This document shows, in pieces, positions 924 through 21,693 of a stretch of 64,000 bases of DNA (its first letter is position 1; every line of letters begins with the position of its first letter). Position numbers and translations under genes: made by a program. The stretch lies in IMG/VR virus record IMGVR_UViG_3300026136_000008, one strand, 5' to 3'. The notes under the pieces are model-generated. The model was not told the origin of the DNA. It ran no database searches and saw only the letters and a list, made by a program, of their open reading frames with translations. The stretch comes from a virus.

Positions 924-1565
924 TTACCAAACCCAACTTACAAAAGAATACCTTAAACCCTTTGTTACTTTACGAACTCGATGAGGGTATAAAAAGTTAC
1001 TAGGGAAAAACATAATCTCTCCTTTCTTAAAATAGTAATCTTTAGTACCCCAAAATCTTAATGCTCCACCTTCGAAGTCATCACCTAAATTGCCAACAAT
1101 AGAAACTGTTGGAATACCTTTACCACCTACAGCATTACCTACATGATCGCAGTGTTCCATCATGTCGTGTGTTTCCTCGTATTTCATAAATTTAGGATCA
1201 GTAAATCCTCTAAAATAATCATACCATTCTATATCTTCTAAATACTCATGAACATAATGCTCTAATCCAGCTTGCATTCTTTCACGCAGCGTGAGCAATA
1301 GATCTTGATTTTGCATATGACATAAACCATAATTACGATCTTGTTCAGGAATATCAGGATCACCTATGAACTGTTCCCAGTCAATACTTAATGTTGAACC
1401 AGCAATGCCATCTTGTTTTCGTGGTGCATCAGGATATGCATTAACTACATCTTTAGGGAATGGTAACCACGTATCTTCTTTATTTAACGTGGTTACTATT
1501 TCATCACAAAGGCTATCATTAATCCATATGTCCTTATGGACATAATGTTCAATGTTAAGATTCAT
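924..1565 (-). CDS. 2OG-Fe(II) oxygenase (prolyl-hydroxylase-like)
   Basis: HxD (EHCDH), FEGGAL, FPSNFLYPHRV..VTKGLRYSFVSW. Confidence 0.9.
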   Translation of the reverse strand: MNLNIEHYVHKDIWINDSLCDEIVTTLNKEDTWLPFPKDVVNAYPDAPRKQDGIAGSTLSIDWEQFIGDPDIPEQDRNYGLCHMQNQDLLLTLRERMQAGLEHYVHEYLEDIEWYDYFRGFTDPKFMKYEETHDMMEHCDHVGNAVGGKGIPTVSIVGNLGDDFEGGALRFWGTKDYYFKKGEIMFFPSNFLYPHRVRKVTKGLRYSFVSWVW

Positions 1566-2798: not shown

Positions 2799-3362
2799 TT
2801 ATTTATACACAAAAACCTTTAGGTCTTTATGTTTTTGTGAGCCTAAATTATGATTTTCTTTTACATCATATTTATGAACCCACTGGCGAATAGCTTTATT
2901 CTGATAGTATATATCATGTTTCATCTTAATGTCATCTCTATACCATTCATAACTAGGATAGGTTATATCCCATCCACCAGCTTTCTTCCACCATTCCATA
3001 CAATCATCACAATCACGTACACACGCAATGATCTGACTTTCTGGAAATACTTCCATTATCTCTTCAAGATAATATGCGAAGTGATGAGACATAAGCACCT
3101 TGACCTGATCTTCTGGTCCTGAGAAGCTATTATTAATCTCATCAATCCATTGTTCTTTTGTACCTAATTCTTTATCTAGCCATGTTCCGTTTAACATTCC
3201 AGGGCCATAATAATTTCCTTTGTGACCACTGAATTGCCCATGTTTGTATTCTTTCTCTGCCACATAATCGGTAATATCAGCATGATGATTAAATCTTACT
3301 TCTTGACCGACTCCACTCCACCGTGATCCAGGAGCTCCTGTTATAAAAATCCAATTCTTCAT
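2799..3362 (-). CDS. Hypothetical protein, P-loop/sulfotransferase-like fold
   Basis: N-terminal WIFITGAPGSRWSG and later IIACVRD resemble sulfotransferase-type motifs. Confidence 0.45.
   Translation of the reverse strand: MKNWIFITGAPGSRWSGVGQEVRFNHHADITDYVAEKEYKHGQFSGHKGNYYGPGMLNGTWLDKELGTKEQWIDEINNSFSGPEDQVKVLMSHHFAYYLEEIMEVFPESQIIACVRDCDDCMEWWKKAGGWDITYPSYEWYRDDIKMKHDIYYQNKAIRQWVHKYDVKENHNLGSQKHKDLKVFVYK
2800..2807 (-). promoter_or_regulatory. T4 late promoter TATAAATA (hsp20-iscU)
   Basis: Exact consensus upstream of the hsp20 UTR. Confidence 0.75.
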
Positions 3363-4039
3363 ATCGAAATTACCTTAGGATTTGCAAGTAATTTATATGT
3401 TTTTTCTGTAGCTATTCCAGTGACCAGTAAATTAGATCTCGGGCTTAATCCAGCATTAGCTGTACAGTGAGGAACATTATACCAATCAAATGTATAAATC
3501 TCTCCTGCTTTATAACCTGTATGCATATAGTTTCCAAACTGTATAAAGTGTCCTGGTTCCCAATCGTTTAACATAATAAAAAATCTAAATACACTATCCG
3601 GATCTTTTGGAGCATATTTATTTAATTTATCTATATGCAAAGACCAGACTTGACCTTGTGTTTGTGTATGTACTCTAGATTGTATTGGACGTTCACCATC
3701 AACTAAATAAAGAGCATCAGCCATTTTCTGGAATACAGGAAGAAGATCATAATTCATATTTCCTATTGGATGATTAGGATCTCCACCAGCTCTTTTAATA
3801 TCATATTCTTCTGATTCAAATTCTTGTTCAGAACGGTTTGAATTTGGATTACGAGTTCGCCATGTAACTTCTGTGCTACTTTCTATTGTTTCTTGTAACT
3901 CTTTACTCCAATCACCATTAAACCTGCCCACATACCGTATGGTATCATGAGCAGGATTATTATCGAATGGGTCAAAATGATACTCTGACCTTTCTTTTAA
4001 ATTGTCAAGATTACTTAACAAGACCTTCTTTATATACAC
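3359..4039 (-). CDS. Asp/Asn beta-hydroxylase-like cupin oxygenase
   Basis: LHIDK ... FDWYNVPHCTANAGLSPRSNLLVTG. Confidence 0.65.
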   Translation of the reverse strand: MYIKKVLLSNLDNLKERSEYHFDPFDNNPAHDTIRYVGRFNGDWSKELQETIESSTEVTWRTRNPNSNRSEQEFESEEYDIKRAGGDPNHPIGNMNYDLLPVFQKMADALYLVDGERPIQSRVHTQTQGQVWSLHIDKLNKYAPKDPDSVFRFFIMLNDWEPGHFIQFGNYMHTGYKAGEIYTFDWYNVPHCTANAGLSPRSNLLVTGIATEKTYKLLANPKVISI

Positions 4040-5048
4040 TTGCTATACCTAAAGCTTCTGTATTAAACCATACAAGATTCTGTAAAGCTTCGGCAGTAAT
4101 AAATGTCATAAGTGTATCACGATGGTTATTACCAGCTTCTCCGATAAGCCAGTCATATTGACCAACTTTCTTTTGAATAGCTGCAACAGCATCAGGATCT
4201 TGACTCATTTTAGTTAATGCATTTTGTAATTCGAATGCATTTGGATTACCTTTGTTTACCCATAATGCTTTTTGCATACCATCACGAAATGACTTCACAA
4301 GCTTATAGGCATCATAGAATTCTCCAGAAGGTGCCACACCCCATCTCTCTTCAAATAAGATTTCGAATTGAAATCCTGGGTAGTTAGGATCATCGGCATG
4401 ACTTCCGTCTGCTTGAAGTATACCATGATGAAACCACATTTCAGCGTTCTCATCTCCAGCCACGTGTTTCTTATATGCCGCTGGATTCTCTCTTGTACCA
4501 GTTAACTCTCCACGTTTAAACGCAAGTCTGCGTTCTCCGCCAGACATACCGCTTACCCACGTTACATGCTCTTCAAAGCAGGCAGCATATTCTTGCATAG
4601 TCTTGTCTGGACCACATATTAACTGTGTAAATGCCCAAGCTTCTGGTGTTTGACCAGATCCCGAAGCAAATTTAGGGAAATCCATATCAGCACCAATACG
4701 TTTACCGGCAATAATATTTAGATTCATAAGCCCAATTGATTCGTAATCACCATAGTTATAGTCTACATTCTCTTGTAAAAATGATACACCATTACCACCG
4801 TGTGAAACCATAACAACTTTGTCATCGTCTCTCATTTCATTGTGCCATTTGTTAAATCCAGGAATGTCTCTTGCTCCTGGGTGATGTAGTATAACTATCT
4901 TCTCTCCTAAGAAAGGTTCAAGTTGATCAGCAACGATTTGTGTCCATACACTCGTTCCACCGCCAGGTTTCTGTGGCACAACAAATGTGTAGTCGGCAAT
5001 TGCTGTTGTAGTTAATGCCGCTAGGCATAGTGCTAATAATTTCTTCAT
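4011..5048 (-). CDS. tctC: Tripartite tricarboxylate transporter substrate-binding protein (TctC/Bug-like)
   Basis: Signal peptide; FVVPQKPGGGT and HHPGA motifs; directly follows tctA. Confidence 0.75.
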   Translation of the reverse strand: MKKLLALCLAALTTTAIADYTFVVPQKPGGGTSVWTQIVADQLEPFLGEKIVILHHPGARDIPGFNKWHNEMRDDDKVVMVSHGGNGVSFLQENVDYNYGDYESIGLMNLNIIAGKRIGADMDFPKFASGSGQTPEAWAFTQLICGPDKTMQEYAACFEEHVTWVSGMSGGERRLAFKRGELTGTRENPAAYKKHVAGDENAEMWFHHGILQADGSHADDPNYPGFQFEILFEERWGVAPSGEFYDAYKLVKSFRDGMQKALWVNKGNPNAFELQNALTKMSQDPDAVAAIQKKVGQYDWLIGEAGNNHRDTLMTFITAEALQNLVWFNTEALGIASVYKEGLVK

Positions 5049-6466
5049 GAATACTCCAATTTATTCTTCTTCAATGATAAACAAAATAATAATACAATAC
5101 ATATTATTAAACCTAAAAATATTGGCCTCGTCATCAAAGTTTCCCAAGTGTATAGAGAACTCATTTGAAGAGTCAACGTTTCGACCTTGTAGCTCAAAAT
5201 GAACGCCATTAACATGGCAGGTCTACTATACTTATACGCTTTTCCAAAGACACCCAGAAAAGAACATATAAGCAAGATTACATAATCTTCCCACCCGCCA
5301 GTGTATTGAGTACAAGCCCATACAATAAAACCTACGAGTAACGGAAAATAATACTTATACGGTACATAAGATATCCTGCAAAGATACTTATTTAAAGCTA
5401 TGCATATAAATGCAACTAATACCGTACCCCACATAAATCCATATGTAAGGCTATCAAAAAATCTTAAATCATAGGCTAAATCAACTGTGCCTAATTCAAA
5501 TCCTAAATACATAAACAAAGCTATGAGTACTGCTGCGAATGAAGCACCAGGAATTCCGAATAAAACTGTTGGAATCATACTTGTTGCTTTTTGAGCATTG
5601 TTAGATCCTTCTGGTCCAATCACTCCACGTATATTTCCTTTACCAAACTCTTCGTTAGGATGTGTAGCTAATGTTGAACCGTATGCCATCCAATCAGCAA
5701 CACCGCCACCAATGCCTGGCAAGAATCCTACAAATGCACCTATTGCTCCACCTCTTAATGCATCCCATTTATATTTCCATGTTGCTTTAATTCCATCCCA
5801 TGTTTGTCCTGATGTGTCGTGTGGTTGTGTTGTAGCTTTACCCTGTTTTAGTCCATCTAATATTTCAGGTATAGCAAATAGACCAGCAACCATCGGCATA
5901 ATCTGAATACCATCTGCTAAGTAATCCCAACCAAATGTCCAACGATCGGCATTTGTAACTGGATCTACTCCTATCATACCTAAAAATAAACCGAGTATTA
6001 TTGCAATTATACTTCTTACCCAAAATCTATTACTAACAAATCCTACACAAGCAAGAGCTAACATAGTAAATGCCCATAGTTCAGGTACCCCAAAGATCAT
6101 CATAAGTTTCATATACCAAGGGAGTAAAGCAAACGTAAGTGTTCCCCATAAGAGACCATTAACAGTACTTGTTGTGATTGCTGCAGTTAAAGCATATGTT
6201 GCTTTGCCTTGTTTAGCTAATGGATAACCATCTACCATTGTAGCAGCGGATGAGTTTGCACCAGGAATTCCTAATAAAACTCCAGTGTATGTATCGCCTG
6301 TAGTAGATGCTGCGACTGCTGCCATACAAAAGACAACACCAAGATAAGGATCTGAGAATAAATGCATGAAGCCAAATAGAATGACAAGACCTGTCGTAGC
6401 TCCAGCAGCGGGTATAATTCCAATAATGAGACCAAAAATGGTCCCTAATAACAAATGTGTAATCAT
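5045..6466 (-). CDS. tctA: Tripartite tricarboxylate transporter permease TctA
   Basis: Polytopic membrane protein; GIPGANSSAATMVDGYPLAKQGKA and GPEGSNNA..ATSMIPTVLFGIPG signatures. Confidence 0.92.
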   Translation of the reverse strand: MITHLLLGTIFGLIIGIIPAAGATTGLVILFGFMHLFSDPYLGVVFCMAAVAASTTGDTYTGVLLGIPGANSSAATMVDGYPLAKQGKATYALTAAITTSTVNGLLWGTLTFALLPWYMKLMMIFGVPELWAFTMLALACVGFVSNRFWVRSIIAIILGLFLGMIGVDPVTNADRWTFGWDYLADGIQIMPMVAGLFAIPEILDGLKQGKATTQPHDTSGQTWDGIKATWKYKWDALRGGAIGAFVGFLPGIGGGVADWMAYGSTLATHPNEEFGKGNIRGVIGPEGSNNAQKATSMIPTVLFGIPGASFAAVLIALFMYLGFELGTVDLAYDLRFFDSLTYGFMWGTVLVAFICIALNKYLCRISYVPYKYYFPLLVGFIVWACTQYTGGWEDYVILLICSFLGVFGKAYKYSRPAMLMAFILSYKVETLTLQMSSLYTWETLMTRPIFLGLIICIVLLFCLSLKKNKLEYS

Positions 6467-6469
6467 AAT

Positions 6470-7276
6470 TTAAATTTCAAATTCTAATGGATGATGTCCA
6501 AACGGAACTCCTTCTTGTTCTTTACATATCACTTTAGATATATCTATATTGCTATTTTCTGTAGTTATAATTTTTTGTAAACTTATCCATTCACCACCCT
6601 TTTCTGGTGGTAGTTTAAATGAATCTACATTACTTGCATGATTTATTAAACCTCTAGGTTTTAACATTACATCTTCAGGTAAATAATTATCTTCGAAGTG
6701 TAGATCAGCAACAAGAACAGTATTGTCATCAGTAACTAAATCTAAAACTTCGCATGCTTGACTAAGGTATATATCTCTTGTAATTATTCTTGATGAAATT
6801 GGTAAATTAATTTTCCAAGCTTTGTGTACATTTACACCTAATGTATCTAATATTTCATCTGGGTCCAATTCAGGGTAAGCGTCCGCAAATTTAATTTGTT
6901 GTTCTCGTTCCCATGATCGGATATACTTCCTCAAAGGAATTTCTGGGTCCAATTCAGTTTCATAAGATATACTTGCATTAATTATTTTTATATCTTGATC
7001 AGGTGTTTTTATATAAGTGATTTGATAATTTTTACCTTGGCCAGCATCCATGCCTTCAACAAAGTCGTCAAACTCATATGTTTCTACGGGTGATTCTGAA
7101 CGTGTTTGGATTGTGCAGACTCCGTGCTTCTCATAGCATTCTTGAAAGTTTATACTCTTAACAATATTCATACTGTTTAGAGCTTTAACAAATATCTCTG
7201 GGCATCTTTGCACAAATATATAATCATAGTGTAAATCAATATCTCCGTCGGAGTATTGATACGTCATCATTTTCAT
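6470..7276 (-). CDS. Hypothetical protein
   Basis: 268-aa ORF packed between regA and tctA. Confidence 0.6.
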   Translation of the reverse strand: MKMMTYQYSDGDIDLHYDYIFVQRCPEIFVKALNSMNIVKSINFQECYEKHGVCTIQTRSESPVETYEFDDFVEGMDAGQGKNYQITYIKTPDQDIKIINASISYETELDPEIPLRKYIRSWEREQQIKFADAYPELDPDEILDTLGVNVHKAWKINLPISSRIITRDIYLSQACEVLDLVTDDNTVLVADLHFEDNYLPEDVMLKPRGLINHASNVDSFKLPPEKGGEWISLQKIITTENSNIDISKVICKEQEGVPFGHHPLEFEI

Positions 7277-7686
7277 TATTTTATTCCAATATTATACTTG
7301 GGGCATAATTCCCAATCGCCTTTTTCTTTATGTGATATTATTTTTATTTGATTTAATGGAGCAGTTTCTCCAATAGGTTTAACAGTTTCTAATAATCCCC
7401 AGTCAGACATGAGTGTAACAATTGTATTACGTCTTTGAATGTCATTTTCTGTTAGGTTTGATGGCTTACCATCTAATAAGAATAACTCTTTAAAGTGAGT
7501 TATAAAATACCTACCTTGCTTATGCAAGATATGGCATGATTGAAATAATTGAGAGTCACGCTTGGATGCTACTCCCATGCGTGTTAGTGTTTCTCTGATC
7601 TTTAAAAAATCATCGGGTTCTGCTAGTTTAACTTCTAGCATCATCTCCGGTGACCAATTGACTAAACTATCCTTGTTGTCCGCCAT
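7276..7686 (-). CDS. regA: Translational repressor RegA
   Basis: PDDFLKIRETLTRMGVAS, LFQSCHILHKQGRYFITHFKELF. Confidence 0.97.
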   Translation of the reverse strand: MADNKDSLVNWSPEMMLEVKLAEPDDFLKIRETLTRMGVASKRDSQLFQSCHILHKQGRYFITHFKELFLLDGKPSNLTENDIQRRNTIVTLMSDWGLLETVKPIGETAPLNQIKIISHKEKGDWELCPKYNIGIK

Positions 7687-8038
7687 GCTGTATTCTTCCT
7701 CTTATAATATTTAAGTGTTCATTACTTAAAAGCGGAAGTATATCACGAGCCTTTTCATTACTATAGCCATAATATTCTTTTACAATTTGTAGCTTCTCAC
7801 TTTCTACATTTTTGTTCCACTTAGAAAAACGATTTCGTTTCCTTACAATATTTATAAGAAAGTCGAACTGGAGGCGGCTATCCAGGTGGTGGAACTTATT
7901 CATTTCATTAGCGTATATGACAGTATCAGGAAAATAAGAAAGACCGCGGTTTACCATAAAGGCATTATAGTCTTTCTCATTCTCAAGTATATCAATCTTT
8001 GAATTTGATATTGATGTTATGAAAGCAAATGGATTCAA
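7667..8038 (-). CDS. gp62: Clamp loader small subunit
   Basis: YNAFMVNRGLSYFPDTVIYANEMN, VKEYYGYSNEKA; likely TTG start at 8038 overlapping upstream stop. Confidence 0.92.
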   Translation of the reverse strand: MNPFAFITSISNSKIDILENEKDYNAFMVNRGLSYFPDTVIYANEMNKFHHLDSRLQFDFLINIVRKRNRFSKWNKNVESEKLQIVKEYYGYSNEKARDILPLLSNEHLNIIRGRIQHGGQQG

Positions 8039-8637
8039 CGTGATGCTCCAATATGCTTTTTCTTTTTCCATATCCATACTGCTAATTTAGAGTAAGGCGG
8101 TTTAGTCATTGTTTCAATATGCATCTCTACTACATCAAAATAATTCTTAAACCATTCATGTGCACATTTATCTGCAGTGTCTATTGTCCATGGTACATAA
8201 GTTATGCCATCGTGATGTGCTTCTGGTTTTCTGTCAATGTGAACTCTTACTGCACATATTCCGCCAGGTTTTAGCCATTGCATAAAGTAATCAAAATAAT
8301 ATAGATTCTCTTCCATTGTACCGAAGTTACATGATCCTAATGCAAAGACAACATCAGCAAATTCTCTATTAAATATGTGATGCGCTTGATGGAATGTTGC
8401 TTGGAAGTCTGCTTCAGGATATGGTGCTGCATCAAATCCAATAATGTTATCAAACATATTTTTGAATGGATTAATACCACAACCAGCGTCGATAACTAAT
8501 GGGTTAACATTAAGTTTAGTAATCTCTTCAACAACTCTATCGGCCAATACAAATCCAGAGGTTGGATGTCTGGCAAATTTCTCTTGAGAGTATGGTTTAC
8601 CAGTAAAGAAATCTATTACTTTATTTTCATTCGTCAT
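8035..8637 (-). CDS. Class I SAM-dependent methyltransferase-like protein
   Basis: VIDAGCG motif I, IIGFD, WLKPGG. Confidence 0.75.
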   Translation of the reverse strand: MTNENKVIDFFTGKPYSQEKFARHPTSGFVLADRVVEEITKLNVNPLVIDAGCGINPFKNMFDNIIGFDAAPYPEADFQATFHQAHHIFNREFADVVFALGSCNFGTMEENLYYFDYFMQWLKPGGICAVRVHIDRKPEAHHDGITYVPWTIDTADKCAHEWFKNYFDVVEMHIETMTKPPYSKLAVWIWKKKKHIGASR

Positions 8638-11301: not shown

Positions 11302-11329
11302 ATTATATCACACAAAGGCTTAATGTACA
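11302..11329 (-). promoter_or_regulatory. sigma70-like promoter TGTACA-N16-TATAAT (DUF3310-gp45)
   Basis: AAGTATGTACATTAAGCCTTTGTGTGATATAAT. Confidence 0.7.
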
Positions 11330-12012
11330 TACTTAGGTGTAATATTTTTATAAACTAATTTGTGATTTGGTTCATTAGCTGGATACCCACAACAAATATA
11401 TGGACCTATCCAAAATTGATTAGGAAATCTATGAGCGTATGAAGTCTTTCCATACCACTCAAATATAACTTTTCCGTTTAATGCTACTATAACATATCCG
11501 TCATCATTTGGTGATTGTAAAGTTTTAATAACGTAATCATTCCAAACTCCTGCCGGCATATCATAATCAACAGATATTACATTATTATTTCCATGATCAT
11601 TTGAAGTTTTAATATTAACCCAATGAGTGTTTACTGCAATTGTTGGAACAGTATTTGTATGACCACCAAATGGTTTAAGTTCCCAAATCTTCATAGGACT
11701 TCCATGTGACTTCTCTTTTTTGACAGAGAATCTATACATCATTGGCTTACCCATTTTATCGCCATATTTAGATTGGAGTTGACTACGAAGTTTTTTATAA
11801 TAACAATCTCTATGAATGTCTTCAAGACATCTGTCAGTAAGGAAATTAAATGTGACTTGATCTCCGTCTGTTATAATATGTTCAATACCACTGGTGGACT
11901 TGGCAAACCAAGATCCATTCCACCAGTAATTTTCTTGATAGTCAGCTTCTGCCGGCCAGTTAGCAAAAACACCAGCAGCAATAGTTCCTATTAAAAATAA
12001 TTTCATCTTCAT
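11320..12012 (-). CDS. Secreted polysaccharide-lyase-like beta-jelly-roll protein
   Basis: Signal peptide; GVWNDYVIK..DDGYVIVALNGK..WYGKT..FWIGPY pattern. Confidence 0.5.
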   Translation of the reverse strand: MKMKLFLIGTIAAGVFANWPAEADYQENYWWNGSWFAKSTSGIEHIITDGDQVTFNFLTDRCLEDIHRDCYYKKLRSQLQSKYGDKMGKPMMYRFSVKKEKSHGSPMKIWELKPFGGHTNTVPTIAVNTHWVNIKTSNDHGNNNVISVDYDMPAGVWNDYVIKTLQSPNDDGYVIVALNGKVIFEWYGKTSYAHRFPNQFWIGPYICCGYPANEPNHKLVYKNITPKYVH

Positions 12013-18580: not shown

Positions 18581-19644
18581 TATTGTATCTCCATATCTAT
18601 GGCATCGTTATAGAGACTATTCATTAAGGTCTTGAGCTTTTCCTTATCAAGATCCGTATTCACACCGTCAATATAACTTGCCATTAAGTCTGTTGTATTT
18701 TCTACATCTTCTATATTAGTAAGAACATTCTCACCTAAGAACTCAGAGAAATTTTCAGCTATCTTTAAATCGTGTGTATTCAGCTCTGATATTCGTTCAA
18801 TAAATTTGTCAAACATGAATGGGTTAGACTTATTCCCAACAATTACTTTAACAAATTTGCCTGTAAGTGTATTTATATCATAATTTGCGTAATCTGTGTC
18901 AGTATCATCATAATATATTTTCTCAAATAATGTGAGCGGATTAGGTATTGCTTCCACAGTTTTTGTATCTGTATCGAATACATGGAAATATTTCTGATCT
19001 CCAGCATCTGCCCATGTGAATTCCATTTGGCATCCAAGGTATCTGATGTTGCCTTGTTGAGATGAGGCATGGTAATGTCCAGATAAACATAGGTCAAAGT
19101 GTGCAAAAGGTTCTACACCCATACCATGACCCATAGGTTGCTTAATACCTCTCATCATTTCAAAGCCTTGCAACTCTAAATGACCCATCATAATGCCTTT
19201 ATTACTTGCCAAGAAATTCATTGATTGATCCCAATTCTCTGGATTAATCCATGGCACTAAATGTACATCACAACCATCATAGTTTAATGTTGATGGTTTC
19301 ATAATGATATTGATATTGCTTGTGTAATAACCTAATAGTTCTTTAAGAGAACATAGATCATTTGTGTTCTTATGGAATACATCATGGTTACCTGGAATAA
19401 TATCCATAGTCATACCATTCTGTTTCATAGGCTCAAGGAAATGTCTACGGTTAGCATTCAATGCCTTAAAGTTTACAAACTTCCGATGGTCATAATAATC
19501 ACCTAGATGTATAATATGTTTTATATCATTATCTTTACAAAATGGAAAGAATATTTCAGAATAGAATCTCTCTTGGAAGTCTATGAATATTTCTGAACTA
19601 TTTCTTACACCACAATGTGTATCATTTAATAATGCTATCTTCAT
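18580..19644 (-). CDS. gp47: Recombination endonuclease nuclease subunit (Mre11/SbcD-like)
   Basis: DTHCG, LGDYYD, PGNHD, GHLE, SGHYH. Confidence 0.97.
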   Translation of the reverse strand: MKIALLNDTHCGVRNSSEIFIDFQERFYSEIFFPFCKDNDIKHIIHLGDYYDHRKFVNFKALNANRRHFLEPMKQNGMTMDIIPGNHDVFHKNTNDLCSLKELLGYYTSNINIIMKPSTLNYDGCDVHLVPWINPENWDQSMNFLASNKGIMMGHLELQGFEMMRGIKQPMGHGMGVEPFAHFDLCLSGHYHASSQQGNIRYLGCQMEFTWADAGDQKYFHVFDTDTKTVEAIPNPLTLFEKIYYDDTDTDYANYDINTLTGKFVKVIVGNKSNPFMFDKFIERISELNTHDLKIAENFSEFLGENVLTNIEDVENTTDLMASYIDGVNTDLDKEKLKTLMNSLYNDAIDMEIQ

Positions 19645-20198
19645 TTAAATGGATCTCCTTTAAACCAAATAACTAAACTATATCTTGTACCTTTTGTCAC
19701 TTTATCTACCTTATGCCAAACATGAGATGGGAATACATTAACAGAACCTTTCGGTCTTCCTAATTTATTTAACATAGGTTTTGTTTGACCATATTCTAAT
19801 TCATTATCAAACCACATATCGCCGCCTTCAAAATCATCATTCAGATTCACAGTAACACTTAGCTTTCTTATCTTACCATCTTTAAATGGTTCTTCAAATG
19901 AATCCCTATGCCAATCGTAATAACCACCTTCGTTATATTCGGTAAATTGAATTGCTTTTACTTCATCGTATTCTAAATTCCAGCCAGCTTTTTCATTAGC
20001 TTCACGTATATATGGATGTACTAAATCCATAATCCATGGATCATATAACCACACAATATCTGACTCTCTATAATTTTCTAAGTTATCCTTTGTAACAGCT
20101 TTCTTTTTCTCTTGGGATAAACCTAATTTTATTATATGGTCACATATTTTTGGATCTATTGCTTTTGGACGTGTCCAAACAAATTGTTTAAATCTCAT
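19641..20198 (-). CDS. 2OG-Fe(II) oxygenase
   Basis: YYDWHRD, RKLSVTVNL, FEGGD, HKVDKVTKGTRYSLVIW. Confidence 0.92.
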   Translation of the reverse strand: MRFKQFVWTRPKAIDPKICDHIIKLGLSQEKKKAVTKDNLENYRESDIVWLYDPWIMDLVHPYIREANEKAGWNLEYDEVKAIQFTEYNEGGYYDWHRDSFEEPFKDGKIRKLSVTVNLNDDFEGGDMWFDNELEYGQTKPMLNKLGRPKGSVNVFPSHVWHKVDKVTKGTRYSLVIWFKGDPFK

Positions 20199-20914
20199 TT
20201 AGATACTACTCTATGCTTTGGTGCCCATCCTAATTCTGTTAATTCTTTAATATTGGCGCATGTCTTTACTCGTTCTGTTGTTGGATTATCTGCTCTTATT
20301 TCAGGTGATCTGTATGGCATTAATTTTGCAGCTACTTCTTTTAAATTGATTGATTCACCTGTTCCAATATCAACACATTTACCCACCATTATATCATAGT
20401 TTTCCATCAATGTACATATAGCAGAACATAAATCTTCTATATGAGTCCAATCTCTTTCATGGTATCCATTTATATATTGAACTGTTCCTGGGTTTTCTGT
20501 CATTCTATGATACATCATATCTGTTCTGCCCGGATAAACTGTATGAGGTCTAAAACCTACAAAATCTTTTCCATCCACTTCATTAATCTTTTTAGTTGTA
20601 GCATATGGATTAGTCCACCATTCATGAGCATTTGAACTTGAAGCATACATACATTTTATATTACGTCTCCTACAAAATTCAAATACAGTTCTTGTACCAA
20701 TTACATTTGTTTCAAAATATTCATCAGGCCAATCTAAAGATCTACGAACTCCGGTTAATGCAGCAAGATGAATAACCATATCAAATTTGCCAGTAGCATA
20801 GTCAAACTCAGTAATCTCACCAGTAAAACCAAATACTTTATGTCCTTCATTTTCTAAGTACTTACTTAAATGTTTTCCTATATAACCACGCGATCCAGTT
20901 ATTATTATATCCAT
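20195..20914 (-). CDS. NAD-dependent nucleotide-sugar epimerase/dehydratase
   Basis: ITGSRGYIG, HLAA, YASS, YATTK, RDWTHIEDL. Confidence 0.9.
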   Translation of the reverse strand: MDIIITGSRGYIGKHLSKYLENEGHKVFGFTGEITEFDYATGKFDMVIHLAALTGVRRSLDWPDEYFETNVIGTRTVFEFCRRRNIKCMYASSSNAHEWWTNPYATTKKINEVDGKDFVGFRPHTVYPGRTDMMYHRMTENPGTVQYINGYHERDWTHIEDLCSAICTLMENYDIMVGKCVDIGTGESINLKEVAAKLMPYRSPEIRADNPTTERVKTCANIKELTELGWAPKHRVVSK

Positions 20915-21693
20915 CTTTTATCTTCCTTTATATCTTGATTAATTTTACGCGCCTTCTCTAATAAGGTAAGTTTGCCTTGTCCAGATTTTACAAAGGCACT
21001 TGTATCTTTTGGAAAGCACATACCACCAAATCCATATTTTCCATCTGGTCCAGGAACCATCATATGACTTTTACCAATGCGCTCATCCATAGATACTAAC
21101 TGTGTTAATTCATAAAATCCATTTTGTCCAAACATAGATTTAAGTTCATTAAAGAATATCACTTTTGTGGCAAGAAATGAATTGATTGTGTATTTGGCAT
21201 AAGCCGCTGTTCTTATATCAGTAAATTTTATATGATTTATTTTTATGCCAGCATCTTGAAATACTGTACACCAAAATAAGCATTGGCCTCCACCAAAGAT
21301 AGCAAATTTCTGGTTTAGAAATTCTTTTTCCGAATCTGCTTCTGTTAAAAACTCTGGATTTGTTGTAAGAAAGTTGTCCTCTATGAGTAACTCTGCAAGC
21401 TCAACAGATATAGTTGACTTAATAAGAATAGGAACCTTTGGTGCATGCTTACGAATCTCACGGTGATATTGTTCTACTAGCATATCATCACATTCACCCA
21501 TTGGCCCTTGTGGTGTAGGTAAACATATAATAATACCATCATAAAGATGATAGTGTGGATATATGTAATCTCTTTGAACTAATTCATAACCTGCTGGAGG
21601 ATCTAATATTTCTACAGCATATTTTTGTGATATACCTGCAAATACAGCTTTACCTACTACGCCATAGCCTATGATTAAAAATCTTTTATTCAT
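20905..21693 (-). CDS. UDP-glucose/GDP-mannose dehydrogenase-like protein (short form)
   Basis: IIGYGVVG, LPTP, IKST, NPEFL, GFGGMCFPKD; no C-terminal domain. Confidence 0.88.
   Translation of the reverse strand: MNKRFLIIGYGVVGKAVFAGISQKYAVEILDPPAGYELVQRDYIYPHYHLYDGIIICLPTPQGPMGECDDMLVEQYHREIRKHAPKVPILIKSTISVELAELLIEDNFLTTNPEFLTEADSEKEFLNQKFAIFGGGQCLFWCTVFQDAGIKINHIKFTDIRTAAYAKYTINSFLATKVIFFNELKSMFGQNGFYELTQLVSMDERIGKSHMMVPGPDGKYGFGGMCFPKDTSAFVKSGQGKLTLLEKARKINQDIKEDKRWI

Follow-up and report, generated by a model that had tools for sequence, protein, structure and literature searches.

Adjacent TctA and TctC-fold genes of an uncultured marine T4-like phage: a probable two-part importer of the tripartite tricarboxylate transporter kind

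Analysis of a 64-kb stretch of DNA from an uncultured marine T4-like phage (hereafter the window) led to a gene module, set inside the replication-gene cluster, in which a TctA permease gene adjoins the gene of a divergent substrate-binding protein (SBP). The two gene products probably work together as a secondary importer that depends on its binding protein; it would be a tripartite tricarboxylate transporter (TTT) cut down to two components, both encoded by the phage. An earlier note made from the sequence had read the locus as a phage-encoded TTT system, and this is borne out by the match of TctA to PF01970 (E-value = 1.9e-95) and by the TctC fold predicted for the adjacent SBP.

Organization of the locus

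The features of the window discussed here are the following, each with its coordinates.

7276-7686, minus strand: regA, whose stop overlaps the orf268 start
6470-7276, minus strand: orf268, an acidic ORFan between regA and TctA
5045-6466, minus strand: TctA permease (PF01970), 473 aa, the short form without a TctB-like extension
4011-5048, minus strand: SBP, 345 aa, predicted to be secreted; TctC fold by predicted structure and profile homology, invisible to Pfam
3359-4039, minus strand: orf226, AspH-like, 2OG/Fe(II)-oxygenase-like, with HxD...H...R residues and a GTG start
2799-3362, minus strand: orf187, P-loop-fold protein, probable sulfotransferase from motifs, predicted structure and sub-threshold Pfam matches
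8035-8637, minus strand: orf200, class I SAM-dependent methyltransferase family from motifs and family-profile PDB matches
924-1565 and 19641-20198: two further 2OG oxygenases, from Pfam

The whole chain is encoded on the minus strand in the order regA, orf268, TctA, SBP, orf226, orf187, tightly packed and overlapping, and it is shared with regA. Specifically, 3 nt lie between the orf268 stop and the TctA start, while TctA/SBP, SBP/orf226 and orf226/orf187 overlap by 4, 29 and 4 nt, respectively, just as the earlier note had described for its consecutive tctA, tctC, AspH-like and P-loop genes. Its list of four genes omitted the fifth gene of the interval, orf268. The latter has no family match and is lineage-restricted (8 homologues in 5.8 billion clusters); 4 related loci contain it, with insertions or deletions, its dN/dS is 0.36-0.53, and it is outside the conserved module. 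In the window, gp62, regA and orf268 separate orf200 from the TctA-SBP pair. GC content is even across the pair and the locus (0.31-0.42). The closest cultured phages are Phage C48C1 and Pelagibacter phage HTVC008M, whose DNA can be aligned to one quarter of the replication cluster at 66-68% identity, and the N-terminus of the DNA polymerase is only 42% identical to that of the best cultured phage.

The permease, its binding protein and the missing TctB

The match of TctA to PF01970 reaches 320 bits (cut-off 28.9) and extends over profile positions 4-422 of 423. A simple hydropathy scan returned 11 hydrophobic segments. Members of the TctA family carry a repeated motif, G-Hy3-G-Hy3-G-Hy2-P-G-Hy-G, in TM1 and TM7 (PMC5812351). 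The TM7 copy of the phage protein (G239-x3-G243-x3-G247-x2-P250-G-x-G253) agrees with it exactly, and in the TM1 copy (G8-x3-G12-x3-G16-x2-P19-A-A-G22) Ala replaces the Gly after the Pro; the G and P positions of both copies are invariant among 14 viral TctA homologues. A profile search of the PDB with TctA gave no meaningful match, and no membrane component of a TTT system has been solved. In the phylogeny against cellular TctA, all phage copies fall in one well-supported clade (23 rows, SH-like support 100), whose members are short TctAs. The nearest non-phage relatives show 34-38% identity and are mostly cellular TctA-TctB fusions paired with TctC, 90 of the 150 best representatives being at least 590 aa long. 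Descent of the phage TctA from such a fusion was considered and dropped: outside the phage clade the tree mixes long forms with short ones, with 31 changes between them, so that it can only be said that the nearest relatives are mostly fusions, with no direction of change.

Concerning the SBP, direct family searches missed it, and only structure and profile-profile comparisons led to a family assignment. Searches of Pfam, PHROG and NCBIfam gave no match for the protein, so that the earlier note was right to call TctC divergent; PF03401 is not matched even at an E-value of 10. Among 15 viral members of the SBP family, none matches PF03401 at an E-value of 1 and all fail the Pfam TctC threshold, and a homologue with 46% identity reaches 26.0 bits (cut-off 27). 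The AF2 model of the SBP (pLDDT 88) was used for a Foldseek search, in which the top 16 matches were all TTT receptors (E-values from 4e-11 to 7e-8, best 4.3e-11), among them MatC, BugE, TctC, BugD, Bug27, TphC and AdpC. Additionally, hhalign against canonical TctC gave a probability of 99.1% (E-value = 1.1e-18) over 283 columns, and four of the five matches in a profile search of the PDB were Bug/TctC proteins. By its predicted fold and by profile-profile homology, the SBP is thus classed as a TctC/Bug-type receptor. By inspection, its N-terminus resembles a Sec signal peptide ending A-I-A before D-Y. Identity of the SBP to the solved TTT receptors is no more than 11-14%, and these receptors bind very different ligands among themselves.

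TctB is poorly conserved, no function is known for it, and archaea with a TctA lack it (PMC5812351). The earlier note had seen no TctB, and we agree: the 64-kb window holds no small ORF with at least three TM segments and about 100 related loci hold no conserved small multi-TM ORF, a judgement that covers 64 kb of genome and a poorly conserved protein, so that a copy elsewhere or a host TctB is possible. The nearest cellular TctAB fusions have a TctB-like extension, and an HMM made from it matched cellular controls only. Phage PstS is believed to serve as a part of the phosphate transporter of the host, and a comparable arrangement, in which the phage supplies two of three parts and its TctA pairs with a host TctB, is conceivable by analogy, though in our view unlikely. 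It would be favoured by the many TctCBA variants of SAR11 and similar marine heterotrophs (bioRxiv 10.64898/2026.10.07.757358), by the essential role of the analogous small subunit in TRAP transporters (PMC5812351) and by the retention of TctB, fused to TctA, in many of the nearest cellular relatives. However, identity between the phage TctA and cellular TctAs from outside its clade does not exceed 38%, and the poor conservation of TctB makes cross-pairing doubtful. A cyanophage-like contig that also encodes heme oxygenase and bilin reductase has a member of the TctB-less clade, and so do phages with quite different backbones; from this a common host partner seems unlikely. The preferred reading is that the phage TctA clade probably works without TctB, as is believed of archaeal TctAs.

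Conservation of the pair and its gene neighbourhood

TctA and SBP are adjacent in 98 viral or metagenomic loci, in 94 of them with TctA first. Because the loci are not phylogenetically independent, counts of co-occurrence, here and for the neighbouring genes below, run higher than the true number of separate events. The adjacent genes mostly overlap by a few bases, and the adjacency persists down to 46-56% identity. Both genes are under purifying selection (dN/dS 0.08-0.19 overall; 0.08-0.15 for TctA, 0.13-0.19 for the SBP). The module is common in ocean metagenomes, with more than 1,600 distinct SBP clusters and contigs of up to ~340 kb, the long ones measuring 146-342 kb. Among 50,697 deposited phage records the locus DNA matched none, and the TctA protein matched only seven, with less than 33% identity and none of them marine.

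Nothing was found in favour of a misassembled host-phage chimera or a decaying remnant, apart from the binning of some homologous contigs in bacterial MAGs. The former had been raised by the earlier note as an assembly chimera with host DNA, and it is ruled out by the even GC content and by dozens of IMG/VR contigs, taken from different samples, that repeat this gene order in the regA-gp43 interval; with intact frames and low dN/dS in addition, chimera and remnant together are left with almost no probability. The MAG contigs that bear the module stem from unrelated phyla and have further phage genes in common, and a T4-type gp23 is also present in one of these MAGs; most of the contigs are treated here as mis-binned phage DNA. 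In L102 the neighbours are DsrMK-like and DUF2058 genes, and this locus may be cellular.

No other family accompanies the pair as constantly as that of orf200, which lies within 3 kb of it in 33 of the 36 loci that had enough flanking sequence. This partner had been overlooked in the earlier note. The protein of the window alone gave no Pfam match, while PF13489 is present in some of its relatives. It harbors the motifs V-x-D-x-G-C-G and L-K-P-G-G; in motif I (D50-x-G52-C53-G54), D50, G52 and C53 are invariant and G54 is kept in at least 90%. The family profile found SAM methyltransferases as top matches in the PDB (best E-value = 2.8e-6). It could be argued that transporter and flanking enzymes are functionally unrelated and merely share the regA-gp43 hypervariable island of T4-like phages. 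That island also houses hsp20, nifU, an additional 2OG oxygenase and an ORFan; the oxygenase and sulfotransferase-like genes of the window are often absent elsewhere; and here gp62 and regA stand between methyltransferase and TctA. Against this, the methyltransferase family is never moved further than 3 kb from the pair across at least eight gene orders and orientations and in different phage backbones, and nearly all copies of the family in the 17-kb loci fall within ~3 kb of the pair. Moreover, orf200 is single-copy in the 64-kb window, and its family is almost absent from deposited phage records, which likewise lack the transporter. We consider a mere sharing of the island doubtful, yet deserving of attention.

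The two genes downstream of the SBP are accessory to the module. The earlier note had coupled the transporter to a hydroxylase and a sulfotransferase-like gene, and both do follow it in the window; across the 36 loci, however, orf226 is found near the pair in only six and orf187 in 19. orf226 can be described from its residues as 2OG/Fe(II)-oxygenase-like, of the AspH-like type. It has the HxD...H iron triad and a basic residue for the 2OG carboxylate, and H135-x-D137, H191 and R201 do not vary among 12 homologues. Asp_Arg_Hydrox (PF05118) occurs in 26% of the members of its neighbouring Atlas clusters, while orf226 itself gave no Pfam match at threshold and only one of the 12 members matches Asp_Arg_Hydrox or another 2OG-oxygenase model (E-value = 0.044). 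Its profile also gave a weak AtsK/TauD-type match confined to the C-terminus (AtsK, E-value = 0.038), on which no organosulfur role was built. The earlier note had put the number of such oxygenases in the window at roughly nine; with orf226 and the genes at 924-1565 and 19641-20198, at least three genes of the 2OG-oxygenase type are confirmed; phmmer with the 2OG oxygenase of L102 found no paralogue in it.

The second accessory protein, orf187, has a P-loop fold and may be of the sulfotransferase type, as judged from its model. Conserved are G-x-P-G-S at residues 9-13, S92-H93 and R116. It remains below threshold for Sulfotransfer_3 (21.9 bits, cut-off 27) and Sulfotransfer_4 (17.7 bits, cut-off 22.8), and sub-threshold matches to these models were obtained for 6 and 5 of 20 family members, respectively. 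With the AF2 model (pLDDT 92), the top four VIA matches were TPST1 (Z 9.4), TPST2 (Z 8.7), a tick TPST (Z 8.7) and STF1 (Z 8.2), with kinases next, within about 1 Z unit, at Z 8.0 and below. Foldseek returned kinases and sulfotransferases mixed, at E-values of 0.01 or worse, and the profile had no useful match in the PDB.

According to the earlier note, 2-oxoglutarate, citrate or Fe-citrate would be imported to feed the many 2OG/Fe(II) oxygenases of the phage, or else the import would provide the two coupled enzymes, oxygenase and sulfotransferase-like protein, with a substrate. Citrate and other carboxylates are the classical cargo of TTT systems (PMC5812351), and the window does have its three or more oxygenase-type genes with NifU nearby. 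Nevertheless, the methyltransferase accompanies the pair more constantly (33 of 36 loci) than these two enzymes do (six and 19). The low identity of the SBP to solved receptors of such different ligands means that citrate cannot be assumed and that the ligand is not readable from sequence, and nothing in the analysis favoured any of the three compounds. As 2OG is a central host metabolite, a dedicated importer would not obviously be needed. We regard this reading, with either cargo, as distinctly unlikely.

Proposed function and comparison with known uptake systems

From gene identities, folds, the missing TctB, conservation, selection and linkage, we infer transport activity and its direction as follows. 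Upon infection of a Gram-negative marine host, the phage TctA would be made in the inner membrane and the highly diverged TctC-fold SBP exported to the periplasm. There the SBP would capture one specific small solute, probably with a carboxylate or other anionic group, and pass it to TctA, inward movement being paid for by an ion gradient; the phage TctA would not need TctB. Since the module travels with a methyltransferase and often with sulfotransferase-like and AspH-like genes, the imported compound would probably be tailored in the cytoplasm and not simply burned. As a tentative extension, the TctB-independent importer and the methyltransferase could constitute a phage-specific import-and-tailor pathway that converts one seawater compound into a product needed by the phage and not made by the host. 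Equally tentatively, in many phages the methyltransferase could act together with the sulfotransferase-like enzyme and the AspH-like oxygenase. A building block used to modify DNA or virions would be one conceivable product.

Compared with TTT transporters (TC 2.A.80), the phage system shares a multi-TM TctA permease with the TM1/TM7 glycine-proline motifs and a signal-peptide-bearing receptor of the predicted TctC/Bug fold, encoded next to the permease. It differs in lacking TctB, in a receptor that fails the Pfam TctC model, in placing the permease before the receptor and in being encoded by a lytic T4-like phage. Cellular two-gene TTT systems, made of TctC and a TctA-TctB fusion of ~640-710 aa, likewise consist of receptor and permease, and one of them has a Pfam-invisible receptor adjoining the fusion that is 24% identical to the SBP (E-value = 7e-13). 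Those fusions, however, carry about four extra C-terminal TM helices with TctB similarity, whereas the phage clade stops at the end of TctA, and their gene order, receptor then permease, is reversed in the phage. Archaea possess a stand-alone TctA without TctB, which has been taken as a sign that TctA is the core transporter (Winnen et al. 2003, reviewed in PMC5812351). In terms of gene content the phage system can be likened to it, although archaea also lack TctC and the phage keeps a receptor.

Viral AmtB/FocA genes have been found on marine viral contigs (PMC8115048), and tctA, noted on SUP05 viral contigs, was listed as a putative AMG without an assigned role (PMC4164917). Like the cyanophage PstS, these are auxiliary genes extending the uptake capacity of the infected cell. 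In the present case, by contrast, receptor and permease are both phage-encoded, belong to a phage-specific clade far from host genes and are linked to putative tailoring enzymes. The earlier papers on viral tctA mention it only in passing, and neither the receptor nor the loss of TctB was recognised. Because Pfam does not recognise the SBP, the most that current AMG surveys can pick up is an orphan 'tctA domain'.

As a rule, the auxiliary genes of a phage mend just one step in the metabolism of its host. In the present case a lytic phage brings along receptor and permease together, and the uptake system that they make up is part of a phage-specific ocean lineage. The module offers a natural test of the long-open question whether TTT systems need TctB at all, and the SBP provides a handle on a dissolved compound taken up by infected cells. 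If import followed by tailoring proved true, this would be the first natural two-component TTT system shown to work without TctB, as well as a new class of viral metabolic gene set.

Gene layout in a marine T4-like phage

The window covers part of the genome of an uncultured T4-like phage from the sea and carries regA, the clamp-loader gene gp62, the sliding clamp gene gp45, the start of the DNA polymerase gene, hsp20 and nifU. The nearest deposited phages are Phage C48C1 and the Pelagibacter phages HTVC008M and Mosig, with a DNA identity of 65-68% that covers just a fifth to a quarter of the replication cluster. The polymerase N-terminus reaches at best 42% identity to a deposited phage, so the host cannot be deduced from these relatives. 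Two genes of a tripartite tricarboxylate transporter (TTT) were located downstream of regA, among the following features.

Features of the transporter locus
8035-8637, minus: orf200, predicted class I SAM-methyltransferase family; between the clamp-loader genes, upstream of gp62
6470-7276, minus: orf268, between regA and polymerase
5045-6466, minus: TctA permease, 473 aa, Pfam TctA
4011-5048, minus: receptor, 345 aa, TctC/Bug superfamily
3359-4039, minus: orf226, predicted AspH-like 2OG oxygenase
2799-3362, minus: orf187, sulfotransferase-like
After orf187, minus, in this order: hsp20, nifU, a 104-aa ORF, a 2OG oxygenase

All genes of the regA-polymerase interval lie on the minus strand and abut or share 4-29 nt with their neighbours, so they read as a single chain with regA; no convincing terminator was found between the chain genes. 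In this region the minus strand has two exact copies of the T4 late-promoter consensus, one within gp62 (7849-7856) and the other, ahead of hsp20, where orf187 ends (2800-2807). Across the whole window this consensus (TATAAATA) is present 23 times against 12.9 expected, and 21 of these occurrences are on the minus strand, which bears most of the genes. A 102-aa ORF antisense to TctA (5598-5906, plus strand) was rejected as a gene, its tblastn matches in all related loci being the shadow of the conserved TctA frame. The acidic ORFan orf268, wedged between regA and TctA, has eight homologues in 5.8 billion clusters; its copies differ by large indels and show relaxed constraint (dN/dS 0.36-0.53). 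Sugar-nucleotide and glycan functions are also encoded by the same phage, namely by an NAD-dependent epimerase gene adjoining a short UDP-glucose/GDP-mannose dehydrogenase-like gene (20195-21693, minus strand) and by a polysaccharide-lyase-like gene (11320-12012, minus strand).

The permease, its divergent receptor and their distribution

TctA matches the Pfam TctA model from end to end (E-value = 1.9e-95). It keeps the duplicated glycine/proline motif of the family (PMC5812351) in helices 1 and 7, at positions that are invariant across 14 viral homologues. The receptor has a typical export signal at its N-terminus and is recognised by no Pfam, PHROG or NCBIfam model, while none of 15 viral homologues reaches even an E-value of 1 with Pfam TctC; the divergence ascribed to it in the earlier note is therefore real, yet its fold is that of TctC/Bug proteins. 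Four of the five weak matches of the viral profile in the PDB were BugD, MatC, BugE and AdpC, at equivalent N-terminal positions. With the AlphaFold model (pLDDT 88), the 16 best Foldseek matches were TTT receptors (E-value = 4e-11 to 7e-8), other receptor classes beginning at 5e-7. A freshwater homologue with 46% identity scores 26.0 bits on PF03401 (cut-off 27), and hhalign against two canonical TctCs gave 99.1% probability over 283 columns (E-value = 1e-18). On these grounds the 345-aa protein belongs to the TctC/Bug superfamily. Two of its loops, P-x-x-x-G-G-G-T-S following the first strand and G-S-G just ahead of P135-E136, correspond in the alignment to the pair of glycine-rich loops in Bug proteins. 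In the BugD and BugE structures those loops clamp a ligand carboxylate, which offers a lead for the receptor. The family comprises at least 1,650 clusters in a collection of 5.8 billion proteins; the 120 best hits are all unnamed or hypothetical, lack any Pfam domain and come mostly from marine samples.

TctA and receptor are adjacent in 98 loci, mostly IMG/VR viral contigs from many samples, with TctA preceding the receptor in 94 and a usual overlap of 3-7 nt, and in the closest group of loci the pair occupies the same regA-gp43 interval. Base composition is even across the locus, and pairwise dN/dS is low for both TctA (0.08-0.15) and the receptor (0.13-0.19), compared with 0.03-0.07 for regA. 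Together, these data exclude both a decaying gene and the assembly chimera with host DNA considered in the earlier note.

Searches of deposited phage records with the locus DNA and the TctA protein revealed no module in cultured phages. Module contigs that were binned in MAGs from phyla not related to one another have further genes in common with the phage of the window, and one such MAG also contains T4 gp23. Locus L102 (MAG 'Marine bacterium B5-7', contig BQJD01000039.1, 1-4600 and 7500-9800) has TctA, receptor, sulfotransferase-like, methyltransferase-like and 2OG oxygenase genes beside genes for DUF2058, a DsrK/HdrD-like Fe-S protein and a 5-TM DsrM/NarI-like protein; it may be cellular, a prophage or the product of chimeric binning.

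Short TctAs and the missing TctB

TctA was searched against 1.84 billion representatives, and on the tree all viral copies fell into one clade (23 rows, SH-like support 100), made up of short proteins of 441-504 aa, outside which identity drops to 34-38%. One member belongs to L111 (ENA ERZ27313046 k141_739055), a 74-kb contig that is cyanophage-like (gp32, gp59, heme oxygenase, bilin reductase); thus, the clade spans different phage backbones. The order in L111 is reversed, receptor then TctA, and its cassette, the largest among the loci examined, adds two sulfotransferase-like, three methyltransferase-family and one GATase-like gene. At another locus (L108:1967-2782, plus strand), a 40%-identical TctA of the clade adjoins a 271-aa protein with faint PP-loop ATPase similarity (ThiI/QueC-type N-terminus, E-value = 0.05-0.14).

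Among the best 150 representatives, 90 are 590 aa or longer. Such long cellular TctAs carry at their C-terminus roughly four additional helices whose similarity to TctB stays below threshold, and they adjoin a receptor gene in ordinary cellular contexts; one of these receptors likewise escapes Pfam and shares 24% identity with the phage receptor (E-value = 7e-13). The nearest cellular kin are mostly two-gene TctC + TctAB systems with a long permease, whereas the phage permease is short and has no TctB-like extension. Descent by loss of the TctB part cannot be claimed, because on the tree long forms occur scattered among short ones.

The absence of a visible TctB, already remarked upon from the sequence, held up. 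No small ORF with at least three hydrophobic segments was found within the 64-kb window, which is part of the genome, nor do about 100 related loci share a small ORF with multiple hydrophobic segments in the vicinity of TctA. An HMM of the C-terminal, TctB-like part of 85 cellular TctAB fusions recovered the four cellular controls (E-value = 1e-30 to 1e-35), whereas the window and the viral loci gave no hit (best E-value = 0.054). These negative results are qualified by the 64 kb covered and by the notoriously poor conservation of TctB (PMC5812351). The phage TctA may instead borrow a host TctB, given that the analogous small subunit of TRAP transporters is essential (PMC5812351) and that SAR11-type hosts have many TctCBA variants (bioRxiv 10.64898/2026.10.07.757358), although in the literature TctB counts as an accessory subunit with no known function and archaea carry TctA alone (PMC5812351). 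In the mode of action that we consider most likely, permease and receptor would operate without TctB.

Linked enzymes and the proposed uptake route

The AspH-like label of orf226 is a fair prediction: the HxD...H...R set is invariant and part of its Atlas neighbour clusters carry Asp_Arg_Hydrox, while no Pfam model reaches threshold. Besides orf226, two 2OG-FeII_Oxy_3 genes are located on the minus strand of the window (924-1565 and 19641-20198). For orf187 a sulfotransferase is probable; it combines a P-loop-like G-x-P-G-S motif with conserved S-H and R residues, and the four best VIA matches of its model (pLDDT 92) are tyrosylprotein and mycobacterial sulfotransferases (Z 9.4-8.2), but sulfotransferase-model matches are below threshold and nucleotide kinases come just behind. 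By its motif I and the PDB matches of its family profile, topped by SAM methyltransferases (best E-value = 2.8e-6), orf200 is assigned to the class I SAM-methyltransferase family. It is single-copy in the window, and the family is essentially absent from deposited phage records.

Linkage was counted in 36 loci whose two flanks each extend for at least 3 kb. A member of the orf200 family is no more than 3 kb away from the pair in 33 of them, one of the orf187 family in 19 and one of the orf226 family in 6; these counts are descriptive, as the loci are not independent. The methyltransferase family stays near the pair through at least eight different orders and orientations, and in 17-kb loci nearly all its copies are at most about 3 kb away, which is the pattern of a functional partner. 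The oxygenase and sulfotransferase-like partners named in the earlier note are thus present here and far from constant among relatives; the interval it considered ended short of orf200, the commonest partner. Its proposed cargo (2-oxoglutarate, citrate or Fe-citrate) is not supported: of the neighbours, the oxygenase is the one most often missing, and the ligands of TTT receptors with this fold differ widely.

On SUP05 viral contigs, tctA was previously counted among the putative auxiliary genes, with its role given as unknown (PMC4164917; PMC6359870), and 'Tricarboxylate transport' genes were noted on an OMZ myovirus scaffold (PMC8115048). In the literature searched, no paper was found that recognises the receptor, the lack of TctB or the link to the enzymes, and the orf200 methyltransferase family as the most constant neighbour is new here. 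With its periplasmic receptor and ion-driven permease, the phage would equip the cell it infects with an additional, phage-encoded route of high-affinity uptake; the linked methyltransferase would probably then modify the cargo, joined in many phages by the sulfotransferase-like and the oxygenase-like enzyme.
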